Made by a program: the position numbers and the translations under genes
Notes under the pieces: generated by a model
What the model saw: only the letters and a program-made list of their open reading frames with translations
The model's database searches: none
What the model was told of the DNA's origin: nothing
Source: a virus
Virus record (IMG/VR): IMGVR_UViG_3300006201_000015
Coordinates: 5,840-69,839 of that record
Length of the DNA stretch: 64,000 nucleotides
Reading direction: 5' to 3' (one strand)
Part shown: positions 2,701-60,396 of the stretch, piece after piece
Layout of the letters: every line of letters starts with the position of its first letter
Position numbering within the stretch: the first letter of the stretch is position 1

Positions 2701-2719
2701 GATTTTGTTCGTTGTTATA
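2701..2719 (-). promoter_or_regulatory. conserved leader motif copy 1 (coding-strand TAAYAACGAAYAAAATCAA + SD)
   Basis: gattttgttcgttgttata on plus, directly upstream of the xis start. Confidence 0.5.
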
Positions 2720-2724
2720 GAAAA

Positions 2725-3087
2725 TTAGCAGAACCGCCTTTTGTTGCGGTAGTCGGAATACTTTTTTGCGAAGCCTAATTCAAACTGTCGGATTGCGCCC
2801 TTGAACCAGAAGCACCTATACCACGGAAGCCCATCGGCCTCGTTATCTGAAAAGTCATAGTCAGCTGTGCCGTCTGACCACATAAAGTGCATCATTTGAA
2901 AGTGCTTGTTCTCTGTGATCCGTGGCTTGCAGAAGTAGATCTTTACCAGTGGATTATGGAACTTGGCTTTCAGCGCTTCTATGAAGCAGTTGGAGTGATA
3001 CCACTCAGTTATGAATCTGTCTTTCATGGGCTGGATTCCTTTATTGTCACTCTGAGTTCCACGGTGCGTCCATCTTTCAGCGTCCAT
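2725..3087 (-). CDS. hypothetical protein
   Basis: 120-aa ORF. No recognisable motif. Confidence 0.3.
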   Translation of the reverse strand: MDAERWTHRGTQSDNKGIQPMKDRFITEWYHSNCFIEALKAKFHNPLVKIYFCKPRITENKHFQMMHFMWSDGTADYDFSDNEADGLPWYRCFWFKGAIRQFELGFAKKYSDYRNKRRFC

Positions 3088-3308
3088 TCATAGCCACTCG
3101 AAGTAGCCTTGTGGCAATCAATGCCACCAAGAAGCTCTTGCACCATATAATCCCTAACAGCGCACAACGCTTCATCTGTACACTCTGTTTTGTTCTGCCA
3201 CAAATTTTTGTTTCTGCTGTTCAGCGTACCTGCATAGATTGCAAATGCACCGCAGCCAACATGATATTCTGCCATAACATCACCACCTATTTTTATCTGC
3301 GATACCAT
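3024..3308 (-). CDS. hypothetical protein
   Basis: 94-aa ORF in the minus-strand gene series. Confidence 0.3.
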   Translation of the reverse strand: MVSQIKIGGDVMAEYHVGCGAFAIYAGTLNSRNKNLWQNKTECTDEALCAVRDYMVQELLGGIDCHKATSSGYEWTLKDGRTVELRVTIKESSP

Positions 3309-3508
3309 TCAAGCTGCTTGTGATCAACCCTGGCTACATTTTCGGCATGGCAAAATAATACTACCGCCCTATCTTCGTCATCTCGGACATAAACGCATCT
3401 TGTTTTATGCCCATCAAGCGGAGAACGATAAAGTAGCAGTGCTCCAAAATACAGCCCTTGCAATATATTCGTCACCACCAAAATTCTATTTGCTATACAC
3501 TGCTTCAT
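3293..3508 (-). CDS. hypothetical protein
   Basis: 71-aa ORF, tightly packed with its neighbours. Confidence 0.25.
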   Translation of the reverse strand: MKQCIANRILVVTNILQGLYFGALLLYRSPLDGHKTRCVYVRDDEDRAVVLFCHAENVARVDHKQLEWYRR

Positions 3509-3894
3509 AATGGAACCCGTATTGGATTGGTTAGTATTGATTCTGCCTCTTCACCTGGCGGAATTAACCTGGCACTTATAATCTTCATCCAGTCACCCAT
3601 TACAGCTTTGAAATTCCGCTTGGCCTCGTTCATTGTTTTAGCCAGCCTGTAATAGGTGCATGGTGGAATTGTTTTTGCATAAGTAGCACAGATTTCAAAG
3701 AGGTAAAAACCATGAGCTGGGATACAACGAGCAATACTCATAATTCCTCTGTCGTCTGTCTTATAAATTACCTCACAATTTCCACAAAACACTTTTGCAG
3801 ATTGCCCCAGAGGTAGCACAGTGGTTTCTGTTGTATTGTCAAGATAGTTTCTAAAATTCTTATAAGATTCAAAACTGAGCATACCTGCCATCAA
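3505..3894 (-). CDS. hypothetical Cys-rich protein
   Basis: 129 aa, several Cys (CGNC..C). Confidence 0.3.
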   Translation of the reverse strand: MMAGMLSFESYKNFRNYLDNTTETTVLPLGQSAKVFCGNCEVIYKTDDRGIMSIARCIPAHGFYLFEICATYAKTIPPCTYYRLAKTMNEAKRNFKAVMGDWMKIISARLIPPGEEAESILTNPIRVPL

Positions 3895-3907
3895 CTCCGC
3901 AAAAACT

Positions 3908-4288
3908 TTATTTTATTCCATGCCCATTGGCAAGAGCTGACTCTGCCATTTCTTTGCTGATAAAGAAGCAGTCTCCGATTGCGTCACCAACAAACTCATC
4001 AAAGTTTCCAGTTTCTTTGAAGTCTACCGAGAAGCTGTCAATGCGGCCATCTTTGAACTGAATGGAAAAGACTTCTCTTTCCTCAATCTCTCCAGATTCA
4101 AAGTCCACATACCATATTGCGTCGCCTTTTCTAATAGCCTTGGAGCAGTTTTCAAGGTTAGCTCTTTCTCTTAGCAGCGTCATAGCCATTTGCAATGCTT
4201 CTGTAATCAGAACTGCATGAGGATACTCATTCTTATAATGAATTTGGATGTGTTCTTCAATCCTGTTTGCTGCTTCTCTATAGGTCAC
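3908..4288 (-). CDS. hypothetical protein
   Basis: 126-aa ORF. Confidence 0.3.
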   Translation of the reverse strand: MTYREAANRIEEHIQIHYKNEYPHAVLITEALQMAMTLLRERANLENCSKAIRKGDAIWYVDFESGEIEEREVFSIQFKDGRIDSFSVDFKETGNFDEFVGDAIGDCFFISKEMAESALANGHGIK

Positions 4289-4303
4289 AAAATCACCACC
4301 AAA

Positions 4304-8594: not shown

Positions 8595-8892
8595 CGGTAG
8601 TATCCTCCTGTTCGTGGTGTGTAAAATTTACTGCTGGAATGAGGTGGAAGAACTCAGTATGGCTTCCTACATCGAAAATGGTCTTGCCATCAGAGTTCCA
8701 AACGCGGGTATAGTAGATTTTGAAGTTGCGTTCGGAACAGAAAGCGTTAATGAGTTTCCCAGCTTCGCTCATAATCTCTTGGTCGGTTTTGAGTCGGCCT
8801 GTATCGTGTAGGTCTTTGATAAAGGCAATCTTTTTCTTATTGCCACGGTTGCCTACAAAAATAAGAATGTGATTTTTCTCCACGTGCATCAC
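8578..8892 (-). CDS. hypothetical protein
   Basis: 104-aa ORF. Conserved leader motif immediately upstream. Confidence 0.3.
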   Translation of the reverse strand: MMHVEKNHILIFVGNRGNKKKIAFIKDLHDTGRLKTDQEIMSEAGKLINAFCSERNFKIYYTRVWNSDGKTIFDVGSHTEFFHLIPAVNFTHHEQEDTTDGKST

Positions 8893-8895
8893 CTT

Positions 8896-8914
8896 GATTT
8901 TGTTTGTTATTAAC
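8896..8914 (-). promoter_or_regulatory. conserved leader motif copy 2
   Basis: gattttgtttgttattaac, upstream of the 8578..8892 gene. Confidence 0.5.
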
Positions 8915-11115: not shown

Positions 11116-12162
11116 TTACTCCCTCTCAGCGCTTTCGCTAAACGGTTTTGGAGCATAAGAGATGAGGGCGTTGCCACAGGTAATGCGGTCGGAATCCTCC
11201 TCTTTACTGGGAACAAACACAATTACATCCCAGCCCAAATCCAGTAAGGGTTTCTCGAATTGGTCATAGACGCTGTAATTGTCGTAGGTGGTTGTGATAT
11301 TATAACCGTTTTCTGATGCAGCTGTGGTTTGATGGATCGGTGTGATTTTGACGATGAACTTCTGCTTATCAAAAAGCTGGTCGAGTTTTGTGGCATCCAG
11401 AACCGTCTGCTCTGTAACAGCAAAGTTCAGAGTGTATTTCCTACCAACCGGAGTAGGAAGAGCGTTTGCGATAGCTGCAATCTCCTCCAGATTTAGAGAT
11501 TTGCCCGCAAATTGAGCACTCCGCTGTTCGTCGGAGGTACTGTTAATGCTGAGTTGCAGCCCAGCTTCTCCGTGTCGCAAAACGTTCTTGATTTCACACC
11601 ATTTTTGTAAAAATTCCGCCAGCCGCTCGTTGTTTGCCGGCATCATGGTAGATATGACAGGGTGGATTGTGACGGCGTGCAGACCGCATTCTCTGACCAA
11701 GGCGTCAAGCCGATGCTCAGTGAACTCCAAAACCGAGGGATTCCATGTAGGTTCACCCATACGGGCGTAGTGAACATTGAAACGGTTGGTAAACCGTACA
11801 TCCTCATGCTCAATGATATAGCGGATTTGGTATTCCAGATCAAGCATTGAGGCGTTGCCGAAGAAGCCGTACTTATGAACGTCACAGAACGTACACTTCA
11901 TAGGGCACCCTTTCTGGGTACTGATCGTTGCCACCCACTTGTCCTGAATGTTTACATCGTGGTGCTGAACACCATCAATCTTCTTGGTAAGCCCTAAGAA
12001 ATCTGCTTTGATATTGTTTTCCTTGCCATAGTCACCTACGGTTAGGAACTCCAATCCCATCAGCGGATTGAAATAAATCTTCCCAGTATGGGTATGAACA
12101 ACTTTGGTTTCCATTGAGATAGTTCCTCCTCTTTTATTCCGACTGTCCAAAAGCCTGGTCAT
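11116..12162 (-). CDS. radical SAM protein (possibly SplB/COG1533-like)
   Basis: CPMKCTFC (Cx3Cx2C) and a downstream GEP motif (MGEPTWNP). Confidence 0.6.
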   Translation of the reverse strand: MTRLLDSRNKRGGTISMETKVVHTHTGKIYFNPLMGLEFLTVGDYGKENNIKADFLGLTKKIDGVQHHDVNIQDKWVATISTQKGCPMKCTFCDVHKYGFFGNASMLDLEYQIRYIIEHEDVRFTNRFNVHYARMGEPTWNPSVLEFTEHRLDALVRECGLHAVTIHPVISTMMPANNERLAEFLQKWCEIKNVLRHGEAGLQLSINSTSDEQRSAQFAGKSLNLEEIAAIANALPTPVGRKYTLNFAVTEQTVLDATKLDQLFDKQKFIVKITPIHQTTAASENGYNITTTYDNYSVYDQFEKPLLDLGWDVIVFVPSKEEDSDRITCGNALISYAPKPFSESAERE

Positions 12163-12475
12163 AGGAAAGACCGGTGGCTTTTAGAATAGCGGCGATGTTT
12201 TTATGGCTGATTTTTCCGCTACTTAGTGCTTTACGTAGACATTTACCAGTTATTTGCTCCAAATCGGCGACGAAAATGTGGTTCTCACACATCCACTGAC
12301 GCAGACCAGGGAAAACAACCGTTGTAGGTCTGATGTTGATACTGAGAGTGCCATATTCCTTAACACACTGGTGTACGGCTTGCCGACTAACGCCATACTT
12401 TTTGGCGATAGCAGCATAGGTCATGCCTTGCTTTCTCAGCCTCATATAGTTTTCTGATTTAGTCACAGACTTCAC
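12134..12475 (-). CDS. small HTH protein resembling sigma-70 region 4
   Basis: LRKQGMTYAAIAKKYGVSRQAVHQCV helix-turn-helix. Candidate transcription regulator. Confidence 0.45.
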   Translation of the reverse strand: MKSVTKSENYMRLRKQGMTYAAIAKKYGVSRQAVHQCVKEYGTLSINIRPTTVVFPGLRQWMCENHIFVADLEQITGKCLRKALSSGKISHKNIAAILKATGLSYDQAFGQSE

Positions 12476-12486
12476 CTCTGCACATT

Positions 12487-12505
12487 GATTTTGTTCGTTA
12501 CTATT
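12487..12505 (-). promoter_or_regulatory. conserved leader motif copy 3
   Basis: gattttgttcgttactatt, upstream of the HTH gene. Confidence 0.5.
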
Positions 12506-13291: not shown

Positions 13292-14731
13292 TCACCTCTC
13301 TGGAAGCTGAGGAAGCCAATTTTCTGGGGTTGGCATTCGGATTGATTTAGGAACACACATTTGATAAAATGCTGATGTTTCTGCAAGTGCCATGTCGATA
13401 AGCCAGAAGTCGTCGCCATTTTGCATGATGTCCAGTGACCACTGACCATGCAGGTGCAGGTCGGGAAGGAGGTTTTCTACCTCGGCAATCAGCTTTTCAA
13501 TGTTGTCTTGGTAGCGCCTCATCAGCGTATCCTCGTGCGCACGATAGATGATATAGTCATGGATCTGGTGTGGAGAGTTGGCGTCATTCCCGTGCCCAAA
13601 ACGCTGCTTCATCGTTTGCGGTTCCCAATACGGTGTGCAACCAATTACCTTACGCTGGTCACAGTCAATAAAGATGCGATACTCGGTGTGTAGCGGCAAC
13701 CCCTTGTAGATACAGGGGTTATTCTCCTTGTCTTCGATCCACTCCCTTACCACCCATTCATTTGTGGTTGAGACGCCATAGATACAGGGGGAGGATAGGT
13801 AGCTTGCCATTTGGAGCGCTTGGAAGTGAATATAAAGCAGATACTCACCCAACTCCCTCACTTCTTTTGCCCCTTTTACATGAGCATTGCGAAAATCAAA
13901 CTTGGAGGAATACGTGCCCGTTTTGATAAAGTATTCCTTATCATCGTTCAGCTGAAAAGCCTTATGCGCCCAAATGTCAACGATGGATAGCGTTGTAGGC
14001 GTAAGCCCGCCATATTCCTGTCGAGTCAGCTGCAGCAAAGTCAGCGGCACTTTCGCAATAGTTGTCGCTGGTATCTTGAAGAAATGCTTGCCTCGGCAGG
14101 CTTCTACGAGCTGTGGGAGCCAATGCCCCATTGAGTTGGGGTTGGTGCCAATAATCTCATAGGTAAGAGCGTCCAGATCGAGGATGTCCAAGCCCTGCCG
14201 AAACATATTGTAGGCAGTACGACCTCTCTCGGAGTTGGGATTGTCCAGATATTCCTTGTATTGGTAGAGCAGCATCGGCCCAGAATCCTCAGAGATATCA
14301 CGCTTCATAAGTGCGCCGGTGAGCTGCGGCTGCATTGCCGGAGGTAGGCTCGTAATTTCTTGGAGGGCGACTGGTTTCGTACCATCTGGAAGTGCCTTAA
14401 AATTCTGTACGGTTCCCAAATTCCCGTCGAAAATGTAAACACTGGTCTGGGAAAGCAATTCGTCTACGATGCGACGCTCAAGCTCTGAGGTATCAGCCGA
14501 AACAGGAGCAGTGTTTACATCTATGGCATGGTTTTGCTCTGCGGCCTGCCGGGAGTTTTGCTGATACAGGTCGTCCGGCTCTTCATTTAAGGTATAGGCT
14601 TGATAGGACTCTTCAAATTTGGCAAGCGTCTCTGGGCTGACTTTCAAAAGTTCAGCAATAGCGTCTTTGGACAAAGAGGGATCTTGCGCACCCAAATTTG
14701 CTAAGAAGATTTTCATTTGTCCTCCTCTCAT
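13292..14731 (-). CDS. hypothetical protein (479 aa); weak ATP-grasp-like features
   Basis: Long ORF. No firm motif; possible nucleotide-binding segments. Confidence 0.3.
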   Translation of the reverse strand: MRGGQMKIFLANLGAQDPSLSKDAIAELLKVSPETLAKFEESYQAYTLNEEPDDLYQQNSRQAAEQNHAIDVNTAPVSADTSELERRIVDELLSQTSVYIFDGNLGTVQNFKALPDGTKPVALQEITSLPPAMQPQLTGALMKRDISEDSGPMLLYQYKEYLDNPNSERGRTAYNMFRQGLDILDLDALTYEIIGTNPNSMGHWLPQLVEACRGKHFFKIPATTIAKVPLTLLQLTRQEYGGLTPTTLSIVDIWAHKAFQLNDDKEYFIKTGTYSSKFDFRNAHVKGAKEVRELGEYLLYIHFQALQMASYLSSPCIYGVSTTNEWVVREWIEDKENNPCIYKGLPLHTEYRIFIDCDQRKVIGCTPYWEPQTMKQRFGHGNDANSPHQIHDYIIYRAHEDTLMRRYQDNIEKLIAEVENLLPDLHLHGQWSLDIMQNGDDFWLIDMALAETSAFYQMCVPKSIRMPTPENWLPQLPER

Positions 14732-15210: not shown

Positions 15211-15233
15211 TATAAGCACCTCCGTTATTCATT

Positions 15234-15251
15234 GATTTTATTCGTCGCTAT
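15234..15251 (-). promoter_or_regulatory. conserved leader motif copy 4
   Basis: gattttattcgtcgctat, upstream of 14728..15210. Confidence 0.5.
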
Positions 15252-15260
15252 ATGTAGTAT

Positions 15261-15298
15261 ATCACGGATTTCCCGTTTGTCAATAGGAAATCCGTGAT
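15261..15298. promoter_or_regulatory. perfect 13-bp inverted repeat (ATCACGGATTTCC-N12-GGAAATCCGTGAT) between two copies of the leader motif
   Basis: Seen directly. Candidate operator or RNA hairpin. Confidence 0.5.
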
Positions 15299-15316
15299 TT
15301 TGTTCGTTATTTTTTT
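15296..15316 (-). promoter_or_regulatory. conserved leader motif copy 5 (no SD; overlaps the 3' arm of the 13-bp inverted repeat)
   Basis: gattttgttcgttattttttt. Confidence 0.4.
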
Positions 15317-16662: not shown

Positions 16663-17457
16663 TTATTCTGCTTGTATCCACTTAAAAGCGGTTTCGGCGT
16701 TGGTGGCGCGTGTAGATTTGCCAGCGCCGCGCTCATAGTAACTGCAAAAATATTTGGCTGCGTCGCCTGGGTCGGCAATAGCGCAAAACTCATCATAGTC
16801 TCCGCCGAAGTAATCCATATTGGTACGAATGTTGCTCATTAAGTAATCAAGCTGGCCGGTGATATCTGCACCGTCAACCGAAGGGTTATAATAAAGGCTC
16901 CACTGGCATAGGCCGTAGTAATAGCTGCCATCATACCCATAAATATCCCACTGCAAATCCAAGGTTTGACCGCCGCACTCGGTCATCATGTTGCCAAGGA
17001 TGCCGGCAATCACAATATCTGACATACCCTGTGTGTTTAGATATTCATAAACCTGACCAGCTACATCATACTCAGATTTCAGTCGTTCAATCTTCTTTGC
17101 AGTGGGGGGGGGATCATCATCTATCGCTTTAAGTACCTCTTCGCCGGTGCGGTTATCTATAAAGAGTTCGGTTTTCTCATACGGCAGGTTTAGCCGATCT
17201 ATCTTGAAATTTCTTTGCTCTTCATAAATCTCCCCAACAAGCATGGCGTACTTACTACCGTCTTTGGCGCACTCTCGCATCTGGCGGTAATAATCCACAC
17301 CATCTTGATAGCCGACAACTTCAATTTGGTCGGTGATCAGTAAAGGAGCAAGAGCTTTTACCCCAACGCCCAAAATTGTGAAGCCGACCAGCGCTACAAG
17401 AAAGAGCACCGTTATCTTTTTCACCGGCACAAGGCCGGATCGTCGTTTGTTATTCAT
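16663..17457 (-). CDS. membrane-anchored lysozyme-like domain protein (phage tail-type lysozyme fold)
   Basis: N-terminal TM helix, then GILGNMMTECGG...GLCQWS motif. Contains an in-frame G9 tract (17104-17112) that encodes PPP. Confidence 0.45.
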   Translation of the reverse strand: MNNKRRSGLVPVKKITVLFLVALVGFTILGVGVKALAPLLITDQIEVVGYQDGVDYYRQMRECAKDGSKYAMLVGEIYEEQRNFKIDRLNLPYEKTELFIDNRTGEEVLKAIDDDPPPTAKKIERLKSEYDVAGQVYEYLNTQGMSDIVIAGILGNMMTECGGQTLDLQWDIYGYDGSYYYGLCQWSLYYNPSVDGADITGQLDYLMSNIRTNMDYFGGDYDEFCAIADPGDAAKYFCSYYERGAGKSTRATNAETAFKWIQAE

Positions 17458-17478
17458 ATTCTTTCCCTCACATTCTTT

Positions 17479-17496
17479 GATTTTATTCGTTATTTA
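17479..17496 (-). promoter_or_regulatory. conserved leader motif copy 6
   Basis: gattttattcgttattta, upstream of the lysozyme-like gene. Confidence 0.5.
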
Positions 17497-19970: not shown

Positions 19971-20338
19971 CACCCTTTCTGTTTTTGTGCTGGCTCTTTT
20001 AGCCATGCAATAAATTCGTCCACCAGCTCCGCTACTCGGCTTTCATCCCACTCCACAAAGTCGTCAAAGCTCATTGTGCCGATAGCAAATGCTTCTTTTA
20101 CCCTGGTCAAATCGAAGATATAACTGTCACCACAACTCGCCCACTGGCAGAAATACTCAATTAAAGTTTCCCGCAGTTTATCCTCTTCCAGAGTTACAAG
20201 TGTTTCCGCATTGGTTTGGGGGTCGAAATCCACACCTACCCTATCCCGATAAACAGAGCAGCGCGATCCTCGATACATAGTGTCACATTCCTTAACAGGG
20301 CAGACTGCACAACCGGTCAAAGGTCTATCTCTTTGCAT
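19970..20338 (-). CDS. hypothetical protein
   Basis: 122-aa ORF. Confidence 0.3.
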   Translation of the reverse strand: MQRDRPLTGCAVCPVKECDTMYRGSRCSVYRDRVGVDFDPQTNAETLVTLEEDKLRETLIEYFCQWASCGDSYIFDLTRVKEAFAIGTMSFDDFVEWDESRVAELVDEFIAWLKEPAQKQKG

Positions 20339-20347
20339 ATTGCTACC

Positions 20348-41793: not shown

Positions 41794-42097
41794 CGCTACA
41801 CTCCTTCTTTCTCACACAGTCTCGTAAAATCCGCTGATAGAGGGAGGGGTCATACCCCTCCATATCAGCCCAGAACATCAAATACTCTGTGGTGTACTGA
41901 TCGGTCACATCACCGGAGACATCGTAAAGCCGGCCACCGATTTCCTGAACGAAGTGGTTAATCACTGGCTCATACATCATGTTTCCGCCAAATCTCTCTT
42001 GAAGAATAAAGGCAAACCAGTAACAGCAGCCATTTAGAAAAACCTCCTCAGAGCCTTTGAAGTTCTGGATAAAGTTGAGGATTGTAGACTTATTCAT
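41786..42097 (-). CDS. hypothetical protein
   Basis: 103-aa ORF. Confidence 0.3.
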   Translation of the reverse strand: MNKSTILNFIQNFKGSEEVFLNGCCYWFAFILQERFGGNMMYEPVINHFVQEIGGRLYDVSGDVTDQYTTEYLMFWADMEGYDPSLYQRILRDCVRKKECSDE

Positions 42098-43533: not shown

Positions 43534-43548
43534 TTGCATCTCTCCTTT

Positions 43549-43569
43549 GATTTTATTCGTTGTTAATAG
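43549..43569 (-). promoter_or_regulatory. conserved leader motif copy 10
   Basis: gattttattcgttgttaatag, upstream of the RNA ligase gene. Confidence 0.5.
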
Positions 43570-43598: not shown

Positions 43599-44753
43599 TT
43601 AGGAATACATAGCTTTCAGCCTATGCGCCACACTCGCAACACCCTGAGCAGCTTGACGCATTTCATCTTCCGTAGTATCAAACCCCATTGAAATACGGAC
43701 GGTACAGGCAGCGCTTTCCTCAGATAATCCAATTCCACGCAGAACGTGTGAAGTTGTGGCGTCGGATGCGCTGCAAGCGGAACCAGCAGAAAGGTAGATG
43801 TCTTGCTGATCCAGCAACAGAAGTAAAGATTCGCTGTTGACTCCCGGCAGTGTCAAGCTGATGATAGCGGAGGAACGCCGGTCGGTATCGCCGTTGATAT
43901 GAAACTCTCCATCCATTTCGACATTAAGCTCATTCAAAAACACATCCCGCAAATGTGCCCACTGTGCCATCTGCCTTGGCAGGCGCTTGGTCGCTATCTC
44001 TGCCGCTTTGCCAATCCCCACGATTCCTGGTACATTCTCGGTGCCGCCTCGCAATCCACGCTCCTGACCTCCACCATAAACCCACGGTTCCTTTCTGATT
44101 CGATTGGAGATATACAGCACTCCAATTCCCTGGGGTGCTCCGAACTTATGACCGGAGAGAGATAGGAAGTCCACATTATAGGCGTGAACGTCGATTGGAA
44201 CGTGACCCGCCGCCGCTACTGCGTCTGTATGGAAAGGAACGTCATACTTTTTACAAAGTGTTCCGATTTCTTTGATAGGATTCACCGTTCCAAGTTCGTT
44301 GTTGACCCACATGACAGAAACGGCACCCAGCTCTTTCTTGTTCTCAATGATAAGCCGCTCCAAATCATCCAGGTCTACCGAGCCGTCCGACCAAACCCTT
44401 GCGTATTTCATAACAACGGGGAGCGGGCATACACACGCATTTTTCAACGGTTCAGAAATCGAATGATGCTCAATCTCGTCCGTAAGGACAACGTGTTTGG
44501 TCAGACATCGGAACCAGGCGTTGTTCGCCTCAGTTCCGCCGGAGGTAAAAAATATCTCCGAAGGGTCTGCACCGATCATTAGCGCTACCTGTTCTCGTGC
44601 CTTTTCGATAGCGTGGCGGGCGTTGATACCCTGGGAATGGATACTGCTGGGGTTTCCAACATGACACGTCTGAAACCATGGAAGCATGGTATCCAAGACT
44701 TCGGGAAAAGGTGCGGTCGATGCCGCATGGTCGAGATAGACCAATGATATCAC
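43599..44753 (-). CDS. cysteine desulfurase (class V aminotransferase, IscS/NifS-like)
   Basis: PLP-lysine motif SLSGHKFGAPQGIGVLY and active-site SAGSACSAS. Confidence 0.85.
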   Translation of the reverse strand: MISLVYLDHAASTAPFPEVLDTMLPWFQTCHVGNPSSIHSQGINARHAIEKAREQVALMIGADPSEIFFTSGGTEANNAWFRCLTKHVVLTDEIEHHSISEPLKNACVCPLPVVMKYARVWSDGSVDLDDLERLIIENKKELGAVSVMWVNNELGTVNPIKEIGTLCKKYDVPFHTDAVAAAGHVPIDVHAYNVDFLSLSGHKFGAPQGIGVLYISNRIRKEPWVYGGGQERGLRGGTENVPGIVGIGKAAEIATKRLPRQMAQWAHLRDVFLNELNVEMDGEFHINGDTDRRSSAIISLTLPGVNSESLLLLLDQQDIYLSAGSACSASDATTSHVLRGIGLSEESAACTVRISMGFDTTEDEMRQAAQGVASVAHRLKAMYS

Positions 44754-44822
44754 TCCTTCGTATAAGAAGAGGCTCAGACCGTAGACAGCCGGCGTGCTAC
44801 TCTATCGTTCTGAGCCTCCTTT

Positions 44823-44842
44823 GATTTTATTCGTTATTAGTC
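44823..44842 (-). promoter_or_regulatory. conserved leader motif copy 11 (overlaps the 3' end of the vWA gene; about 60 nt upstream of the cysteine desulfurase start, with an intervening hairpin)
   Basis: gattttattcgttattagtc. Confidence 0.45.
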
Positions 44843-46396
44843 GTTGACAACAGGACGCAGTGCGTCCTCGATAGGCTGGTAGCGCTCAGTGTTCAGCGTT
44901 TCCAACAGACACTCATAGGGATCGAGCTTGCCACTCATCACCATCTGAGCGATGTTGACGGAGAAACCGCTGACCAGCGCCACGCCCATGTCGTTCTCCC
45001 TAACGGGAATCGTCCCAGAGCGGCTGGCAACATTCCAGAACACCAATCTGGGCATTTTGTAACCTGCCTGCTGATACCGCCTATTGATCTCGTCAAAAAG
45101 GCGGGCGTTTGGCCTCTGCGTGTTGTAGCTCCACCGATCTCTCGAAGGAGCACCGCAGCTGGCACAAGCATCAAACTCCATATCGGAAATGATGAGAATG
45201 TTGGCAGGCAAGTCATTCTGATTCATATGCTTAGAAACCGCTGTTTCCAGGATGAGATCAAAGACTGCCTCCACGTTGGTATTGGCTCCAGCATGGCAAG
45301 CATGGACAATTTGAAGCCGCTCATAGAGGTTCTTGCCACTGGAGATGTCGAGGAGCTGCGGTCTGTCGGAGAAGGACATATACTGATCCTTGAATTGACC
45401 AGAAGATCGCTCGGCAAAATAGATCGCCAAGGCGTTTGCCACCTCCAACGGACGAGCGGAACTCCCAGGGAGCATCACCCACTCCATACTTCCGCTATCG
45501 TCCATAACCACCATCGTGTTTCCACAACCCTGTACCGTGTCAGGCAAATTCTGCCACAATGCCTCCAGTGTGGCGTCCACGCCGTGGCTCTGACGATACT
45601 TGTTGACAATATCGTGCGGGAACAGCGTACCAGCGTTGATCTTGGCCTCGCCGTTCTCCACCCGACTAAGGAACTCACGGCGGCGCTCCTCATCGTGGCG
45701 GAGGAAAGCCTTGTTGTAAATCAGGTTGGCACGGGAGGGGACTCGCTGGTAATCAATCCCGTCCCAATCGTTCTTGGACATCTGCTGCTCCACAACAACC
45801 AGGTAACGGGACAGGCCAGAAAGAGTATGCCGATAGGTACGCTCGGTCATATTCAACCCTTCGCACAGAATACGGGCGTAATGACGAGACTCCTTAGAAG
45901 AGGACTTGCGGCGCGGCATCCACTTTGCCAGCAGAGAGATCGGCTTCTGCTCGACGTTGTTATGCAGATCGTCATGCAGCTGCCTTGCCACCAGCTCAAT
46001 CACCTTATCGCCCACCGGCGTATCCAGCAGACACCAGAGATCGTCCCAACGCCCATACTCAGGCACCAACGACAGCACCGGTGTAACGTACTCCGGAAAC
46101 TTCTTTGCCATCGGCACCATAGCCGCACGAAACAGTCGGCGCTCACCCAGCCCGCCACGCACATCGCGGGCAAAGAACAGCCACTTCATCGCTGTCACCT
46201 TATCCTCGAAAAACGCCTGGGTGAAGCGATCCGCGATCTCCTTAACGCTGGCGTTACGGAGAGACGCCACGGCAAAGTTGAGATCCAGCAAAGATCGACC
46301 AGTGGTGCGATAGCCGACCGCCCCATTCTCGGTAACAGAGATATTGTTTGCGCCGTCCAGCATCGTGTCCTTGACACTTTCCATAAAGTTGCTCAT
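44837..46396 (-). CDS. vWA-domain protein of the DUF2828/UCP015417 type; N-terminal helical domain possibly TROVE (Ro60)-like
   Basis: MIDAS motifs VVMDDSGSM and ISDMEFD in the C-terminal half. Large helical N-terminal domain. Confidence 0.5.
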   Translation of the reverse strand: MSNFMESVKDTMLDGANNISVTENGAVGYRTTGRSLLDLNFAVASLRNASVKEIADRFTQAFFEDKVTAMKWLFFARDVRGGLGERRLFRAAMVPMAKKFPEYVTPVLSLVPEYGRWDDLWCLLDTPVGDKVIELVARQLHDDLHNNVEQKPISLLAKWMPRRKSSSKESRHYARILCEGLNMTERTYRHTLSGLSRYLVVVEQQMSKNDWDGIDYQRVPSRANLIYNKAFLRHDEERRREFLSRVENGEAKINAGTLFPHDIVNKYRQSHGVDATLEALWQNLPDTVQGCGNTMVVMDDSGSMEWVMLPGSSARPLEVANALAIYFAERSSGQFKDQYMSFSDRPQLLDISSGKNLYERLQIVHACHAGANTNVEAVFDLILETAVSKHMNQNDLPANILIISDMEFDACASCGAPSRDRWSYNTQRPNARLFDEINRRYQQAGYKMPRLVFWNVASRSGTIPVRENDMGVALVSGFSVNIAQMVMSGKLDPYECLLETLNTERYQPIEDALRPVVND

Positions 46397-46474: not shown

Positions 46475-46598
46475 TGGAGCGGCAGGTAGGAATCGAACCT
46501 ACGAATGGCAGCTTGGCTTCCTTTTTACCTTGCTGTTAGTGAAACTTCCGCTTCACATTTTTTATAGGGCTGCTGTGTTACCACTTCACCACTGCCGC
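46475..46598 (-). tRNA. tRNA-like gene with a ~50-nt insertion replacing the anticodon loop
   Basis: 7-bp acceptor GCGGCAG/CTGCCGC, encoded CCA, D-arm, T-arm GTAGG-TTCGATT-CCTAC, anticodon stem GCAGC/GCTGC. The stem encloses a 57-nt loop that contains a hairpin and CACTAACAGCAAGG. Confidence 0.5.
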
Positions 46599-46811: not shown

Positions 46812-46926
46812 GTGCCAGGGGTGGGAATCGAACCCACGACCACGGGATTAAAATTCCTTCAATCATTGCTGTGAGCGTTTCATACGATACGCATTGATAC
46901 GCGCTCTATCCACTGAGCTACCCTGG
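46812..46926 (-). tRNA. tRNA-like gene, anticodon region atypical (contains CTCACAGCAATG)
   Basis: Acceptor GCCAGGG/CCCTGGC, D-arm GCTC-AGTGGAT-AGAGC, T-arm GTGGG-TTCGATT-CCCAC. No canonical anticodon stem found. Confidence 0.4.
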
Positions 46927-47128
46927 CTTGAGGTGATAGGGTATGGGCCACTCTCCCATACAAACAGTGTTCTCCACGGTTGCGCACCCGTTTCAATAAA
47001 CATGACGTTTACAATCTTTTCGTCTATGCTACACCGTTTTACATAAGGGTTCATCCGTCGTTTTTGTACATCGGGCAGCTACTCCCAATGCGCATGGTCA
47101 GCTATTCCATGACGCCCTTCTTTTTAGT

Positions 47129-47204
47129 CACAGCGAATGGGACTCGAACCCAATCCTTCCGGCCCCACATGGGCCAGCGTGCTATCCAGCTACACCACAT
47201 CTGC
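47129..47204 (-). tRNA. standard-length tRNA-like element with weak acceptor pairing and non-canonical anticodon loop (possible pseudo-tRNA)
   Basis: T-loop TTCGAGT, D-arm GTGT-AGCTGGATA-GCAC, anticodon arm TGGCC-CATGTGG-GGCCG (A at position 33). Confidence 0.3.
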
Positions 47205-47432: not shown

Positions 47433-47548
47433 TGCAGAGGGTAGGACTCGAACCTACGACACATAGTTCCCCATTATACATTGCTGTTAGTGAGGCTGTG
47501 CGCTCCACATTTTCTATACTATTGCTCTACCGACTGAGCTACCTCTGC
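47433..47548 (-). tRNA. tRNA-like gene with a ~43-nt insertion replacing the anticodon loop
   Basis: Acceptor GCAGAGG/CCTCTGC, D-arm GCTC-AGTCGGT-AGAGC, T-arm GTAGG-TTCGAGT-CCTAC, anticodon stem ATAGT/ACTAT around a 50-nt loop with hairpin and TCACTAACAGCAATG. Confidence 0.5.
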
Positions 47549-49823: not shown

Positions 49824-49850
49824 CTCTACCCCCCCCCATAAGCATACATT

Positions 49851-49870
49851 GATTTTGTTCGTTATTATGC
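49851..49870 (-). promoter_or_regulatory. conserved leader motif copy 12 (followed by a G9 tract instead of an SD)
   Basis: gattttgttcgttattatgc. Confidence 0.45.
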
Positions 49871-49895: not shown

Positions 49896-50849
49896 TTAGG
49901 AGAATAGCTGTTTGTACAGCGTATAGTCCCGTATCCGTTCACGAAGACGCTTGCCAGGATCTGCCTTGTTTTGCTTCTGAGTAAAATCCTCACAGAATAC
50001 ATTGGCTGCAAACTCAGGATCGCTCAAATCAAAATTGTTGTTTTCACATTCCAGCATATACGCTCGATAGAATATACCAGACTGACGAGCAGTATCGAAC
50101 CGCAAAGAGTAGGTGTGATCCATCACCTTATCCATTCGACTGAGACTGGCCCGCATTTGAAAGACGCTTACTTGGTGGCTATCCTCAGTCCGAATCAGAT
50201 AATCCGAATACATATACTTTCGGAAAATAATCCCTCTACCTTTTGTGTTGAACCCCTCAGCGTCCCGCAGACGAACCAACAAGTCTGTCAAGAAATAGGG
50301 CATCTCAATTTTCTGACCATTCAGTATAATTCCGTCTTCCAGAACAGCTGTTTTGGGAAGCGTCAGAACCTGTTCCTCAGTCAATCCATACCAGGCCAAA
50401 TAGAGAACGGCACTGGGTACATCGTACATCGTCTCGTCCACTCGATCCGCAGCTTTGACCGTATCCTCGATCGCTTCGCGCAGATGATTGAGATTTTTGA
50501 AGTAACGGATACGGTCTGTCCCGCCCTTGATGCTCAAATCATCCGCTGTAATACCAGCTAAAATAGTTTCGTGTTCAGCTGGTAACGCTCCGCGTGCAAT
50601 CAGATATCGGATATAGAATACAACAACCTTTTTGTCATTGTAAAAAGTGCTGGAACAGCGGGCTAACGCAAAGTTAAACAGTGCGATATATTCCTCTCTG
50701 GTGTATCCATCGTCAAGAGTTTTACCGATGCTCTCCTCAAACGCTCTAACTTTGTTCCAAGTCTTGGTGAAGTGCTTCGGGTGAGAGAAAGAGGTATAAC
50801 CTCCATCGGCATCCTCAAAAAATTGTGTTCGGTTCATGGTGCCCTCCAT
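49896..50849 (-). CDS. hypothetical protein (317 aa)
   Basis: Long ORF. Weak resemblance to recombinase/SAM-like regions only. Confidence 0.3.
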   Translation of the reverse strand: MEGTMNRTQFFEDADGGYTSFSHPKHFTKTWNKVRAFEESIGKTLDDGYTREEYIALFNFALARCSSTFYNDKKVVVFYIRYLIARGALPAEHETILAGITADDLSIKGGTDRIRYFKNLNHLREAIEDTVKAADRVDETMYDVPSAVLYLAWYGLTEEQVLTLPKTAVLEDGIILNGQKIEMPYFLTDLLVRLRDAEGFNTKGRGIIFRKYMYSDYLIRTEDSHQVSVFQMRASLSRMDKVMDHTYSLRFDTARQSGIFYRAYMLECENNNFDLSDPEFAANVFCEDFTQKQNKADPGKRLRERIRDYTLYKQLFS

Positions 50850-50957
50850 TTCCCTCTAACGATCTCTCATGCCATTATACTACCACAAGTTTCTGCCGTT
50901 GTCAATAGCAAATAACAAAATCATTGAAAATTTTTTGGGGGAGGAGCGCCAGCCTGC

Positions 50958-51413: not shown

Positions 51414-51581
51414 TTTTTATAGTTTTGGGTTGACATACCCGAAAATATGTGATATACTATCCTCGATATCACGAATAGTTTCGTGTCTGGTGATTACTAT
51501 ACCAGCATTTTCTCGTGATGTCAAGTGGTTTTCACGATTTTTTTCGTGACTTTGCAGATTTTTCTGTTTGGGGGTTGTGTT

Positions 51582-51947
51582 ATGGACTCTATCATTTTTA
51601 CGAGAATTAAAGATTTGTGCGCTGAAAACGATATCACAGTCAACAAACTGGAAACCGAACTTGGTATGAGCCAGTATTCTATTGGCAGGTGGAAAAACGC
51701 TACCAGCCCGACAATCGAAAAAATTTCCAAGATTGCAAAATATTTTGATGTTTCTATTGACTATCTCGTGGGCGCTACCGACATCCGCACACCTATTGAT
51801 ACTGTTATGTGCGATCAAGACTTTGTTTCCCTGCAACGCGCCAGAGAACGGATGACAGATCGGGACAAGAGCCGCATGATGGCAATGCTGAAGGTTGGTT
51901 TTGACTACGCATTTTCTGATGAAAAGTCCGATAAATCGGACACCTGA
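51582..51947 (+). CDS. XRE-family HTH transcriptional regulator
   Basis: IKDLCAENDITVNKLETELGMSQYSIGRWKN helix-turn-helix. Confidence 0.7.
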   Translation: MDSIIFTRIKDLCAENDITVNKLETELGMSQYSIGRWKNATSPTIEKISKIAKYFDVSIDYLVGATDIRTPIDTVMCDQDFVSLQRARERMTDRDKSRMMAMLKVGFDYAFSDEKSDKSDT

Positions 51948-52011
51948 TATGTTATACTGAGTTCTCCAACATGGAGAGTCTGTCATTTTCCAGTTAGGAG
52001 GGGAGGTCTAA

Positions 52012-52611
52012 ATGGTCAGAACGGCATTTATACAGCGCAAGGTGTTGGAATTATATCAGCTTATGGATACCATTTCCTATCCTATTCAACCGCAAAAGAT
52101 TATCCCTTGTATCCCCAAAAGCTGCCGTATCCTTACCTATCAAACAATGGCCGAACTGAATCGCTGTTCTATCCGTGATATTGCTATCATGTGTAAAAGC
52201 AACTCCGGTGCGACCCATCATGATGTGGAACAGAACAGATATTTGATTCTCTATAACGCATCCATGAATCAGGGTAGGATTTTGTGGACACTCTGCCATG
52301 AAGTTGGTCATATCTGTATTGGCCATCTTGAAACGATTGAGGAGGCTGAAATTGCCTATACGGATTGGCGGGAGCCATACGATCAGTTTGAAAGCGAGGC
52401 TGATTACTTCGCATGGAATATGATTGCTCCACTACCGATTATGCGCGAAATGGGCATCCGTACCGTTACGGAGATTCAAACTGTGTTTGGCCTATCATCC
52501 CAAGCTGCGGCACTTCAATATGACCGATACACAAAATGGTGCCGAAGCCACATAAAAACTGCGTGGGAAAACAATATGTTACGAGAGTTCCGCACTAAGC
52601 ACAAATGTTGA
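52012..52611 (+). CDS. ImmA/IrrE-family zinc metallopeptidase
   Basis: HEVGH (HExxH) within LWTLCHEVGHICIGHLE. Paired with the XRE gene. Confidence 0.7.
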   Translation: MVRTAFIQRKVLELYQLMDTISYPIQPQKIIPCIPKSCRILTYQTMAELNRCSIRDIAIMCKSNSGATHHDVEQNRYLILYNASMNQGRILWTLCHEVGHICIGHLETIEEAEIAYTDWREPYDQFESEADYFAWNMIAPLPIMREMGIRTVTEIQTVFGLSSQAAALQYDRYTKWCRSHIKTAWENNMLREFRTKHKC

Positions 52612-56024: not shown

Positions 56025-56038
56025 ACAGTCACCACCTT

Positions 56039-56058
56039 GATTTTGTTCGTTATTATAA
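56039..56058 (-). promoter_or_regulatory. conserved leader motif copy 13
   Basis: gattttgttcgttattataa, upstream of the methyltransferase-helicase gene. Confidence 0.5.
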
Positions 56059-58029: not shown

Positions 58030-58042
58030 GATAAAACCTCCA

Positions 58043-58594
58043 TTATTGCCGAATCGAAAGTAGGAACCCAATCCTATCTGGGTTATGCTCCATCCAGTCC
58101 TTTGGGTACACGAACAGAGAGGGAAACTTGCTAAACTGAACGCTATACCCAATGTAAACCAAGGCGTTCGTGCCCACAGCCTCCACGACATTTACCAGAT
58201 ACCAAGGATTGTAGTATCCAGTCACGGCACGTCCATCCTCCATACGGGCGGTGATCTCCACCGGCGTTGCGCCGGTCTTGCTGTCCTTGCCCTGTTTCCA
58301 CGGCTTTACCAGAGCTTTCCATTCTTTGATTTTTTCCACAGTAGCGGTACAGGCCAGCACAGAATCTCCACGCTTGACCTCCCGCTCCACCATCTCATAA
58401 ATCTTCCGCATCTCCTCGCCCTCCGGCAACCCATCCGGCTTTTCGGCAAGCAGCACTGCCGAGATCCCATCGGTAACGATCCACTTATCCCATGCGGCAT
58501 GAATGCCGGGTTTTACTGCCGACTTTCGCTCCTCAAGGCGTGCATTTTCATTGGCAATAATATTGCTCAGTGCCGCAATTTGCTTCTTTGTCAT
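58043..58594 (-). CDS. hypothetical protein
   Basis: Start at MTKKQIAAL with a GAGGAGG site. Confidence 0.3.
   Translation of the reverse strand: MTKKQIAALSNIIANENARLEERKSAVKPGIHAAWDKWIVTDGISAVLLAEKPDGLPEGEEMRKIYEMVEREVKRGDSVLACTATVEKIKEWKALVKPWKQGKDSKTGATPVEITARMEDGRAVTGYYNPWYLVNVVEAVGTNALVYIGYSVQFSKFPSLFVYPKDWMEHNPDRIGFLLSIRQ
58127..58136 (-). promoter_or_regulatory. GTTTAGCAAG variant motif, copy 4
   Basis: cttgctaaac. Confidence 0.3.
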
Positions 58595-59544
58595 ACAGAT
58601 CTCCTCCTCATGCACTGCTCCACAAACTCCTGGACATAGGCGGCGCTTCTGAATTTGATATCTACACGACCATTTTTGAACAGTTTGATAAATTTGACCT
58701 TGCTCATATTACAAGTGTCGAACTCATTTACCTTGGTCGTGTATTTGCACAACTCAGGAAACCACAGCGCGGCTTCACCCATGCGTCCACACTGATACCA
58801 CGCCAACGCATCCAGTAAGGTATGAAGATTCTCGTTCGGCTTCCACTCCGGCCCCCAGCTCCACTGGTCATCACAGTAACACCAACCACTGGTCAGCCGA
58901 AGCGTGTCGTTCTTGATTTCAAACTTTTCTTTCCCGTCCCAGTTCTGGTGACAGCAATTCCATGTGCGCTCCAGGAACTCGTTCATAGCCTGCTCCTGGA
59001 AAGAGAAACCTCCCAGCTGGACGAAAATCTCATCCACGATCTGTTCATAACGAAGGGGGAGCGTTCTCATAGCCTCGCTATACTTGCTTTCTTCCTGATG
59101 GTAGATCTCCATCTGTTCCTTAAACTGGTCGATTTGCTCATCACTCATCTCACGATATCCACCCCAAGGCAGCTGCGGTTCTTTTGGTGGGGTAGGGATA
59201 AGATGTTCCAGAATTATTGAGCTATCCAGCTCCACGGTATATTTCCGGCTAAAGTAGTCCACGATTGCCTTAATAAATCGCTTATTTCGTTTTTGCATCA
59301 TCTCGTAGATGTGCTCATCATCACACTTAAAGCTGTTACAAGTGATGTATGTTCCATAACTATCGTTCCCAAGGATCTGCCGCTGCTCATATCTCGTGTC
59401 GGATATGACATTCGCAATTTTTTGGAGTGCCGGCCCAGATTTGTCAAACGCATCCTGGTGTCGCAGACAAAACGCCTTGTCCTCCTCAGAAATTCTGTTA
59501 TCCGCCTTGATCTCCACGGACGCGAACTTATTAAGCAGACTCAT
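58591..59544 (-). CDS. hypothetical protein (317 aa)
   Basis: Long ORF; start overlaps the upstream stop by 4 nt. Confidence 0.3.
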   Translation of the reverse strand: MSLLNKFASVEIKADNRISEEDKAFCLRHQDAFDKSGPALQKIANVISDTRYEQRQILGNDSYGTYITCNSFKCDDEHIYEMMQKRNKRFIKAIVDYFSRKYTVELDSSIILEHLIPTPPKEPQLPWGGYREMSDEQIDQFKEQMEIYHQEESKYSEAMRTLPLRYEQIVDEIFVQLGGFSFQEQAMNEFLERTWNCCHQNWDGKEKFEIKNDTLRLTSGWCYCDDQWSWGPEWKPNENLHTLLDALAWYQCGRMGEAALWFPELCKYTTKVNEFDTCNMSKVKFIKLFKNGRVDIKFRSAAYVQEFVEQCMRRRSV

Positions 59545-60241
59545 CTAAATTCTCCTCACTTTCAATGTTTTGTACTCCACTTAACACCTTGTCCAGATTA
59601 GCGGAGGTAATGGTGTTAAAAAGCTCCTCCAGAATGCGCGGCGTATATGTCCGTGTTTCCAAATGCTCATGGTATTTTGTCATCTCATTCTGCAGGTTCA
59701 TCAAACTGGATACCGTGCCAGAACGATGAATAGTTCCAAGCATATCGCAGACATCCTTGCACTGACGGCGGCGCTGACGAATTTCCTGCAATGCCTTGTA
59801 GAGTTTGAACCCGTCCACTACATTGGCGTTAGTGAACTCGATCTTGTGAAGCATATCCTCCTGCGCTTTGTCCGCTACACGGACTTGATCTGAATAGTAG
59901 GAGAGAAGTACCCGCATAATGCGTCCTGTTTCGTACATCTGTCCGATCATATCGGGTAGCGTATCCAGATACACATTGGCCTGTTCCTCGGTAATTTCAG
60001 CCCTAAGAGTACCTGAACTATCGAAAGGCATATGTGCTGTATCACAAGGAAGAATCTCCACCTCCGACTTTCTGATCTGCCCCTTGACCGCATTATTGAA
60101 ATTCATACGCATGAAGTTATCCACTTTCTGTCGGTCGCTAAAACGATGAGCTTTATCCAGATCAACCCACACAGCCTCATTCCGTAGCTTTACAAGACTG
60201 AGATATTTCCCAGACTCGCAGTGTCGAATTACATATTCCAA
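59531..60241 (-). CDS. hypothetical protein
   Basis: 236 aa. TTG start behind an AAGGAGG site. Confidence 0.3.
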   Translation of the reverse strand: MEYVIRHCESGKYLSLVKLRNEAVWVDLDKAHRFSDRQKVDNFMRMNFNNAVKGQIRKSEVEILPCDTAHMPFDSSGTLRAEITEEQANVYLDTLPDMIGQMYETGRIMRVLLSYYSDQVRVADKAQEDMLHKIEFTNANVVDGFKLYKALQEIRQRRRQCKDVCDMLGTIHRSGTVSSLMNLQNEMTKYHEHLETRTYTPRILEELFNTITSANLDKVLSGVQNIESEENLDESA

Positions 60242-60246
60242 TAGAA

Positions 60247-60363
60247 CTCACTCCTCCTTGTAGCGTCGCACCACCATATCGGCGTACCTGTTAGCCTCTT
60301 TTTCTTGGAAAGCCTCGCAAATCAGTTTGACTGCCGTGATAATCACGCCTATCAGAATCTCCA
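60247..60363 (-). CDS. small hydrophobic protein (38 aa)
   Basis: MEILIGVIITAVKLICEAF... directly behind a leader-motif copy. Not in the ORF track. Confidence 0.3.
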
Positions 60364-60377
60364 TATCGCCGCCTCCT

Positions 60378-60396
60378 TGATTTTGTTTGTCGCTAT
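60378..60396 (-). promoter_or_regulatory. conserved leader motif copy 14
   Basis: gattttgtttgtcgctatg, upstream of the 38-aa ORF. Confidence 0.45.

Follow-up and report, generated by a model that had tools for sequence, protein, structure and literature searches.

A dispersed asymmetric box in a temperate phage of gut Clostridia, a probable operator of an integrase-fold repressor

The described systems closest to the element reported here are the repeated repressor boxes of the Bacillus phages SPbeta and phi3T. MrpR binds the repeated SPBRE element in ten SPbeta promoter regions (PMC10516654), and SroF, a monomer, reads 24/26 bp of an asymmetric box found at many distant genome sites (bioRxiv 10.1101/2025.11.27.690993). 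We analyzed a stretch of 64,000 nucleotides (nt) of viral DNA (IMG/VR record IMGVR_UViG_3300006201_000015, positions 5,840 to 69,839), called the window below, which carries a non-palindromic repeat, the box, in 14 strong and two to three weaker copies across 58 kb. We consider it probable (about 0.7) that this box is the operator of the phage's own master repressor, a 313-amino acid (aa) protein encoded in the window, and thereby the equivalent of the SPBRE/SroF box. The sequence covered was the window plus about 20 kb of flanks, out of a genome of about 136.6 kb.

Several features are shared with the SPBRE/SroF system. The best structural match of the 313-aa protein is an integrase-fold repressor; the box is long, asymmetric, A/T-rich, and dispersed in many copies; and boxes sit at promoters (P36107, P15283 twice, and P50905 inverted), with the same abutment on the -35 element in phi3T. 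The phage itself resembles the SPbeta-like phages in its temperate genome of about 130 kb and its DnaE-type polymerase, and there is a second XerD-like recombinase among the late genes here. Unlike in that system, the repressors share no detectable sequence similarity, the box differs in sequence and spans 19–21 bp rather than the 24–26 bp of phi3T, the host is a gut Clostridia lineage, and an ImmR/ImmA module lies beside the repressor-like gene.

Two further systems bear on the placement of the box. In the stoperator systems of Cluster A mycobacteriophages (L5 gp71, TipsytheTRex repressor), a monomeric repressor reads an asymmetric site present more than 20 times, at promoters and in short intergenic spaces; the orientation of the sites strikingly tracks the direction of transcription, and they act on initiation and elongation, with an orientation-dependent halt (PMC9283540). 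This is the mechanism we propose for the copies inside operons, but stoperators are 13-mers read by a helix-turn-helix (HTH) plus a "stoperator domain," whereas here the site is 19–21 bp and the candidate reader is an integrase-fold repressor; hosts and phages are unrelated, and the likeness is one of mechanism only, not of membership. The start-associated sequences (SAS) of Cluster K mycobacteriophages are asymmetric repeats confined to the non-structural genome half. Nearly all share one orientation, with a single opposite copy, and they lie a few nt before start codons, at times including the stop codon of the preceding gene (PMC3203893). They are 13 bp long, contain the Shine–Dalgarno (SD) sequence (the ribosome-binding site (RBS) position, 3–7 bp from the start codon), and no factor is known to bind them, whereas the motif of the window does not include the SD, is found at promoters too, has several copies with no adjoining start codon, and has a candidate protein with structural precedent.

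Copies, extent and placement of the box

Scanning the window with the 19-mer TAAYAACGAAYAAAATCAA at up to three mismatches returned 14 matches, 14/14 on the minus strand (Table 1), where nearly all window genes lie; shuffled sequence gave a mean of 0.08 matches, and no shuffle had 14. A G stands two positions past the end of the 19-mer in 14/14 copies, which extends the motif to about 21 nt. The weight-matrix consensus, tARyrACrAAyAAAATCAAnG, spreads its information over nearly all positions, varies by transitions only, and has no dyad symmetry, and the flanks 5' of the motif are unrelated between copies. In the weight-matrix scan of the window, the top shuffle score was 15.4 bits; an inverted copy, a degenerate copy, and a weak candidate scored above it (Table 1). 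The degenerate copy lies in a cytosine-5 DNA methylase (34318–36062) that is apparently split into several open reading frames (ORFs; 35850–36062, 35375–35836, and 34318–34941), the last of which holds the box. Rfam gave no family match at the boxes.

Seven to nine copies are joined directly to GGAGG or GGTG, with the start codon 7–9 nt further on, and in three to four additional copies the SD lies 6–12 nt beyond the motif; in four copies the leading TAA or TAG is the stop codon of the preceding ORF. An earlier note on this DNA, made from the sequence alone, had described 14 near-identical minus-strand copies without dyad symmetry, fused to the SD in most cases, and these observations all held. 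So did the three exceptions it had singled out: the copy at 36107–36125 abuts a 12/12 TTGACA-17-TATAAT promoter, the pair at 15232–15250 and 15294–15312 flanks TTGACA-16-TATACT and a perfect 13-bp inverted repeat, and a run of nine G follows the copy at 49849–49867. This run (49829–49837) occupies the SD position of a small membrane-protein gene downstream of the repressor-like gene, and a run of seven to nine G is conserved at that position in two relatives (L134 and L136; related sequences carry L numbers throughout).

Strong minus-strand sigma-A-type promoters are few in the window (51524, 50905, 36107, 15283, and 2470), and direct box copies abut or flank both of the two strongest sigma-A promoters. 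The 13-bp inverted repeat is presumably the operator of a dimeric regulator other than the box reader. Minus-strand terminators are also few between 36 kb and 3 kb, and given this scarcity of promoters and terminators, the copies before erf, thyX, the lysozyme-like gene, the HTH gene, the 104-aa ORF, and xis lie within long operons. The claim that the 14 copies mark the starts of transcription units is therefore not borne out, as many of them occupy tight intra-operon junctions with no promoter or terminator nearby.

Table 1. Box copies and associated features of the window. The 19-mer column gives the match to TAAYAACGAAYAAAATCAA; bits are weight-matrix scores.
Feature	Position	19-mer	Strand	Context
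Copy 1	2697–2717	2699–2717	-	TAACAACGAACAAAATCAAcG; 7 nt past upstream stop codon, 20 nt before Tn916-Xis-like gene (2477–2677)
Copy 2	8892–8912	8894–8912	-	TAA is stop of Dam-like ORF; fused to GGTGA, then GTG start of 104-aa ORF
Copy 3	12483–12503	12485–12503	-	TAG is upstream stop; precedes 113-aa HTH gene (12134–12475)
Copy 4	15230–15250	15232–15250	-	begins 5 nt past -10 of P15283, covers about -1 to +18; precedes 160-aa gene
Copy 5	15292–15312	15294–15312	-	upstream of P15283 (about -60 to -42); 3' end overlaps left arm of 13-bp inverted repeat
Copy 6	17475–17495	17477–17495	-	precedes lysozyme-like membrane protein gene (16663–17457)
Copy 7	25178–25198	25180–25198	-	between DnaE stop codon and thyX SD; fused to GGAGG
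Copy 8	33743–33763	33745–33763	-	TAA is upstream stop codon; fused to erf SD
Copy 9	36105–36125	36107–36125	-	3' end shares 1 nt with -35 of 12/12 sigma-A promoter P36107
Copy 10	43545–43565	43547–43565	-	NifS/RNA-ligase junction; SD-fused
Copy 11	44819–44839	44821–44839	-	TAA is stop of Ro60-like gene; then hairpin GGAGGCTCAGA...TCTGAGCCTC and T-rich tail, no start codon
Copy 12	49847–49867	49849–49867	-	28 nt past stop of repressor-like gene, behind small terminator; TTAGCA before, TGTATG and G9 run after
Copy 13	56035–56055	56037–56055	-	5' untranslated region (UTR), about 50–70 nt downstream of second-family (M2-type) promoter-like site 56144; fused to SD of methyltransferase-helicase
Copy 14	60375–60395	60377–60395	-	5'UTR, about 40–60 nt downstream of M2-type promoter-like site 60469; fused to SD of 38-aa ORF
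Inverted copy	50906–50926		+	TAGCAAATAACAAAATCATTG on plus strand; directly abuts -35 of repressor-like gene promoter; 19.5 bits
Degenerate copy	34491–34511		-	TAGCGACGAACAAAATCGGGC, inside cytosine-methylase ORF; 18.6 bits
Weak candidate copy	1764–1784		+	16.3 bits
313-aa protein gene	49896–50837		-	integrase-fold, YopR/MrpR/SroF-like; proposed cognate repressor
P50905	50877–50905		-	promoter of repressor-like gene; sigma-A-type, TTGACA-17-TAGTAT with TG
P36107	36079–36107		-	sigma-A-type, TTGACA-17-TATAAT, 12/12
P15283	15256–15283		-	sigma-A-type, TTGACA-16-TATACT with TG; between copies 4 and 5, embedded in inverted repeat
13-bp inverted repeat	15261–15298 (arms 15286–15298, 15261–15273)			perfect, ATCACGGATTTCC/GGAAATCCGTGAT; brackets -35 of P15283
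Second repeat family, range	56144 to about 9 kb past window end (L124 1–9200)		-	
Second repeat family, 5' ends in window	62877, 62458, 61374, 60765, 60469, 57675, 56766, 56144		-	

The box changes in concert within each lineage

Near-identical genomes (L021–L027, L128, L130, and QXXE01000004) retain the copies; copy 1 is also found in L128–L131 and L095, and copy 2 is kept in L128 and L130. Where flanks have diverged, in L025 and L128, the core is retained and changes are confined to transitions at the degenerate positions, as at copy 3 in L128 (two transitions, both flanks diverged) and copy 6 in L025 (flanks changed). Exact-pattern scans returned single chance matches only from IMG/VR and, from GTDB genomes, about 70 chance matches besides a single true relative (QXXE01000004) and a small identical contig. 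Searches with the window's own sequence or exact k-mers miss the diverged variants of L028 and L051. Absence of the motif from relatives with 42–76% DnaE identity was considered and ruled out, as these two genomes carry such variants.

These relatives bear on the idea that the repeats have no regulatory role and are short linkers that help homologous recombination to swap modules, or that gene conversion keeps them uniform. One mosaic breakpoint against QXXE01000004 falls exactly at box 14 (60378), with an extra gene inserted right after it, and the promoter cassette 15256–15291 is flanked by two direct copies. However, only 1 of about 10 mosaic breakpoints coincides with a box, and those at 42080/43087, 3921/5145, 14772, 57326/51096, and 49334/3682 lie hundreds of bases from any. 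Boxes are moreover retained while both flanks diverge, and the transitions at degenerate positions vary independently among copies, which argues for selection on the pattern rather than homogenization. We give the linker explanation almost no credence.

We then compared three homologous junctions (past the 313-aa gene, Ro-stop/hairpin/NifS, and NifS/RNA ligase) in the syntenic relatives L134, L136, L137, and L138, which were reached through homologues of the 313-aa protein. Their repressor-like proteins share 66, 57, 51, and 48% identity, respectively, with that of the window. Each genome has its own box variant at all three: TAGCAACGAAYAAAATCAA in the window, TAGnGACGAAYNAAATCAA in L134, TAGCAACTCATWAAATYA in L136, TAGCAACAAAGWAAAYTA in L137 (whose box type reads TAGCAACAAAGAAAATTAT), and AGCAACAAAKnAtAcTA in L138. 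The NifS/RNA-ligase site of copy 10 thus holds lineage-specific variants in all four, and the site of copy 12 is occupied in all relatives compared. The more distant variants are ACAAAAATACATAGT at the thyX and erf junctions of L028 and AACGCATTAAATTA at the erf junction of L051. Because copies are alike within a genome and unlike between genomes, we conclude that the box has a co-evolving, phage-encoded reader. In the repressor tree, {window, P0008, P0018} separates from {P0027, P0036, P0063}, and the box variants mirror this split.

The inverted copy at the promoter of the 313-aa gene changes together with the direct copies of its own genome in L132, L134, L136, L137, and L138 (window and L134, ...AACAAAATCA; L136, ...TCAGAAAATTA; L137 and L138, ...AAGAAAATTAT). 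As this copy lies upstream of a promoter, co-varies, and shows that both orientations are used, the element appears to be read as double-stranded DNA. Copy 11 is also informative. The hairpin behind it (44750–44820) is conserved at the Ro60-like/NifS junction of L071, L134, L136, L137, and L138, its 5' arm begins with GGAGG, and in L138 both arms are altered, GGAGACTTGGA being paired with TCCAAGTCTCC, a covariation. This hairpin could be a terminator, an attenuator, or a 5' stabilizer.

Action in the mRNA, as an unstructured A/C-rich translation-enhancing leader or as a site for a RegA-like regulator or processing nuclease, would account for much of the placement. All 14 strong copies are on the sense strand, 10–12 lie 10–25 nt before a start codon, seven hold a fixed register with GGAGG/GGTG, two are in 5'UTRs past promoter-like sites, and one begins at about +1 of P15283; SAS elements, similar in placement and orientation bias, have been proposed to act in translation (PMC3203893). 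Nevertheless, a co-varying copy in the opposite orientation upstream of a promoter cannot be a leader, the copies at 36105–36125 and 15292–15312 stand before promoters and at a distance from any SD, what follows copy 11 in five lineages is a conserved hairpin rather than a start codon, and lineage-specific concerted change speaks against a generic ribosome or host effect. The restriction of variable positions to transitions also raised the idea of a trans-acting antisense RNA. We rejected it: a duplex scan of the window and flanks gave nothing above shuffles besides the copies' own antisense strands, the best non-self duplex (-13 kcal/mol) being equal to shuffles. A purely mRNA-level role is in our view improbable.

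The earlier note had likened the architecture to T7-type promoters, with the motif as a promoter of about 20 bp for a phage RNA polymerase or sigma factor and the start at or just past it. The likeness is real in that the site is contiguous, asymmetric, and followed by G-rich sequence, the invariant G at position 21 could be +1, and the lineage-specific variants recall the T7/T3/SP6 pattern; a few copies (49867 and 17495) have a weak terminator-like hairpin directly before them, and other promoter-like classes in this phage also put the predicted start at the SD. Yet not all copies are oriented to drive a downstream gene. The inverted co-varying copy abuts the -35 of a sigma-A promoter and would fire away from any gene, and copy 11 would fire into the hairpin and T-rich tail conserved in five lineages. 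Copies also lie inside tightly packed operon junctions, four of them overlapping the upstream stop codon, and two are inside 5'UTRs. No RNA polymerase or sigma factor was found in Pfam/PHROG scans of the window ORFs or in precomputed Pfam matches of about 20 kb of flanks, and in phi3T it is a demonstrated repressor box that shows this geometry. We therefore regard a T7-like promoter as very unlikely. We likewise rejected a sigma-type promoter with YAAAAT serving as the -10 or the motif replacing the -35, as the start would fall within the SD or the gene.

A candidate repressor and its proposed mode of action

The 313-aa protein gave only a faint integrase match in the PHROG scan. Its AlphaFold (AF2) model, made with 34 homologues, has a predicted local distance difference test (pLDDT) score of 90.4 and a predicted template modeling (pTM) score of 0.83; the named homologues come from Flavonifractor and Oscillospiraceae. 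The best Foldseek matches of this model in the PDB were YopR (8bj6, 8bpz) and MrpR (8a0a), at E values of 2e-8 to 1e-7. SroF (9rgl, 9rd5), including the DNA complex 9rd5, was matched at E 2e-6 with a template modeling (TM) score of 0.5, and lambda Int and Cre were worse (E of about 3e-4 or above). The model thus predicts a tyrosine-recombinase fold with a core-binding and a catalytic domain. The segment LAWYGL(T/S)EE, which we take to be recombinase box I, stands in place of the canonical TGLRxxE; the presumed box-I arginine position (GL-R) is T or S in 34/34 homologues, and Y305 is invariant.

We also examined phi3T (KY030782) with the 15-nt core GAATAAAAATAAAAT at up to two mismatches. There were 39 core matches, nearly all sense-oriented to local transcription, and two geometries recurred, both of which the window shows as well. 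In the first, the box is followed by 5 nt and TTGACn-17-TAnnnT (e.g., 58072, 76034, 90126, 107651, and 120958); in the second, it is followed by about 4 nt, GGAGG, and a start codon (e.g., 54054, 59981, 82238, 87237, 105187, 110266, and 125072). A box also lies about 25 nt past yopR/sroF, matching copy 12 past the 313-aa gene. SD-fused sense boxes, a geometry odd for an operator, therefore occur in a system with a demonstrated repressor box. The accessible portions of the two reports (PMC10516654; bioRxiv 10.1101/2025.11.27.690993) do not discuss such SD-fused intra-operon boxes.

The reader could instead be another phage protein, namely the 113-aa HTH protein (12134–12475), a winged-helix protein (34028–34321), or the ImmR-like repressor. 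Copy 3 is directly upstream of the HTH gene, the 113-aa protein matches "transcriptional regulator" PHROGs, and box co-variation alone cannot tell which of the co-evolving proteins is the reader. However, a single short HTH typically reads about 6 bp, a poor fit to an asymmetric site of 19–21 bp; the inverted co-varying copy is at the promoter of the 313-aa gene and not at that of the HTH gene; the ImmR-like protein has a candidate palindromic operator of its own, CACGAAAAAAATCGTG; and the precedent for this site geometry is found in integrase-fold repressors. We consider another reader unlikely. For the HTH protein in particular, which had been put forward as a sigma-region-4-like cognate factor, the Sigma70_r4 score is 20.9 bits, below the cut-off of 24.1; it is a generic HTH protein that passes the HTH_23 and HTH_28 thresholds, and the 313-aa protein is the better candidate. 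What stands of the earlier overall reading is thus a non-palindromic cis-regulatory element with a phage-specific cognate factor, as the concerted evolution indicates, while the promoter, the unit starts, and the HTH factor fall away.

Reasoning by analogy, we infer that the 313-aa protein binds the boxes and thereby represses initiation or elongation. In this proposal, one monomer of the protein, an integrase fold apparently without the first catalytic arginine, would clamp one asymmetric box of about 21 bp, as SroF does. Boxes abutting or flanking P36107, P15283, and P50905 would block initiation, and the box at P50905 would make the repressor autoregulatory. The roughly 10 intra-operon boxes before RBSs, oriented with transcription, would be polar, stoperator-like roadblocks that prevent expression, in the lysogen, of xis and of the genes for replication, recombination, and nucleotide metabolism. 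Once repression is lifted, the A-rich, G-poor sense strand could serve as an unstructured translation leader, and a secondary role of this kind for the A-rich box is possible. More tentatively, and with considerable doubt, one may suppose that at least 10 roadblocks in SD register, mainly rather than promoters, silence about 60 kb and that the box then becomes a translation leader, a dual DNA/RNA element.

Several points weigh against repression by the 313-aa protein. A phmmer search of the protein against all PDB chains gave no match at E values up to 10, and the structural alignments with YopR/SroF have 14–16% identity and TM scores of only 0.43–0.50. What ties the protein to the box is similarity of fold, position, and co-variation, and all phage proteins diverge along the same tree. 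A DNA operator would not need the fixed SD register (7/14 fused to GGAGG/GGTG), which may point to a further role at the RNA level. The ImmR/ImmA module next door implies that the 313-aa protein need not be the sole or master repressor. An intra-operon roadblock is no more than putative even for SPbeta/phi3T, where chromatin affinity purification sequencing (ChAP-seq) gave only ten peaks (PMC10516654), and the sequence analyzed comprises all but about 50 kb of the genome.

Phage setting and implications

The window comes from a gut Clostridia phage that is temperate, has a genome of about 136.6 kb, and shows SPbeta-like architecture. Three contigs of 136,586, 136,595, and 137,831 bp have different break points, which indicates a circular genome of that size. 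The gene content includes a tyrosine integrase and a Tn916-type Xis; DnaE-type polymerase, primase-helicase, Erf, and SSB; NrdD, ThyX, and dUTPase, plus several DNA methylases; and an RNA-repair cluster of a Ro60-like protein, NifS, RNA ligase, and polynucleotide kinase (PNK). More than 2000 collection blocks contain the exact ThyX and integrase proteins. By DnaE, the annotated phages that come closest are large phages of Clostridioides and Bacillus (about 41–42% identity), and megablast of 20 kb against INPHARED returned nothing.

Both episomal and integrated forms were seen. In the episomal form, beyond window position 1 (L128/L131 11300–21272), late, lysis, and diversity-generating retroelement genes converge on int: an endolysin, the second XerD-like recombinase, whose counterpart in SPbeta/phi3T is yomM, a reverse transcriptase (RVT_1) that is probably a diversity-generating retroelement, and DUF6273 proteins. 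In L129 and L130, the int-xis end is joined to bacterial genes, and these are integrated forms, L129 being a deletion remnant.

Adjacent to the repressor-like gene, an ImmR-like HTH_3 repressor and an ImmA-like M78 peptidase (51525–52611, plus strand) form a second, classical immunity module beside the integrase-fold repressor gene. The region has divergent near-consensus sigma-A promoters at 51430 (plus) and 51524 (minus), and the palindrome CACGAAAAAAATCGTG near 51532–51552, just upstream of the -35 at 51524, is a candidate for the ImmR-like protein's own operator. Control of lysogeny may be shared with this module or dominated by it.

A second, unrelated repeat family, GGTTAGCAA-N14/15-TGTAAnTnnAAT(A/G)GG, has 24 copies in about 17.5 kb (Table 1). 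One copy precedes almost every small early gene, often joined directly to GGAGG, and the family looks like a phage-specific class of early promoters; one copy (L128 15853) lies in the late region beside the second XerD-like recombinase gene. The two families meet at several places. The box copies ending at 56055 and 60395 are 40–70 nt downstream of second-family sites, within the 5'UTR; the TAGCAA of the second family overlaps the 5' end of the box family; and box-like sequence occupies the second-family spacer at L126 2501, L124 6858, L051 1638, and L137 10947.

Further observations concern RNA-related genes. Just upstream of the Ro60-like gene (44837–46396; DUF2828/TROVE plus vWA), three minus-strand segments of 115–121 nt (46478–46598, 46813–46927, and 47433–47548) and a weaker one (47129–47204) match Rfam tRNA models; their anticodon arm is extended by about 49 inserted nt, and ARAGORN makes no call. 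Y-RNA-like (YrlA-type) tRNA mimics are one possibility, and interrupted tRNAs that serve the adjacent RNA-repair cluster are another. About 1 kb within the RNA-ligase gene (42081–43086) is missing from the Clostridiaceae relative QXXE01000004 (L071), which may mean that the window acquired an insertion, intein, or intron or that the relative underwent a deletion. In L025, a 97%-identical relative (metagenome-assembled genome GCA_910575575.1), a Thg1-like gene (20333–20508) stands in place of the 474-aa ORF 13292–14716; it is a further RNA-repair or tRNA-editing accessory gene in this phage group.

Operator function of the boxes would extend the SroF/MrpR class beyond Bacillus SPbeta-like phages to a temperate gut Clostridia phage that is very common. 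A natural specificity series would then be available in the co-varying pairs of box and repressor, of which there are at least five (window/L134, L136, L137/L138, L028, and L051), and from it one could learn how an integrase fold reads at least 20 bp. Were the dual DNA/RNA element real, it would be a convergent SPbeta-type counterpart of mycobacteriophage stoperators, and the SD-fused boxes of phi3T would be functional roadblocks under-reported by ChAP-seq. The RBS-fused intra-operon boxes of phi3T make a stoperator-like block of elongation testable in a tractable Bacillus system, and the boxes, together with the GGTTAGCAA-type promoter family, provide markers of the regulatory architecture in this phage group.

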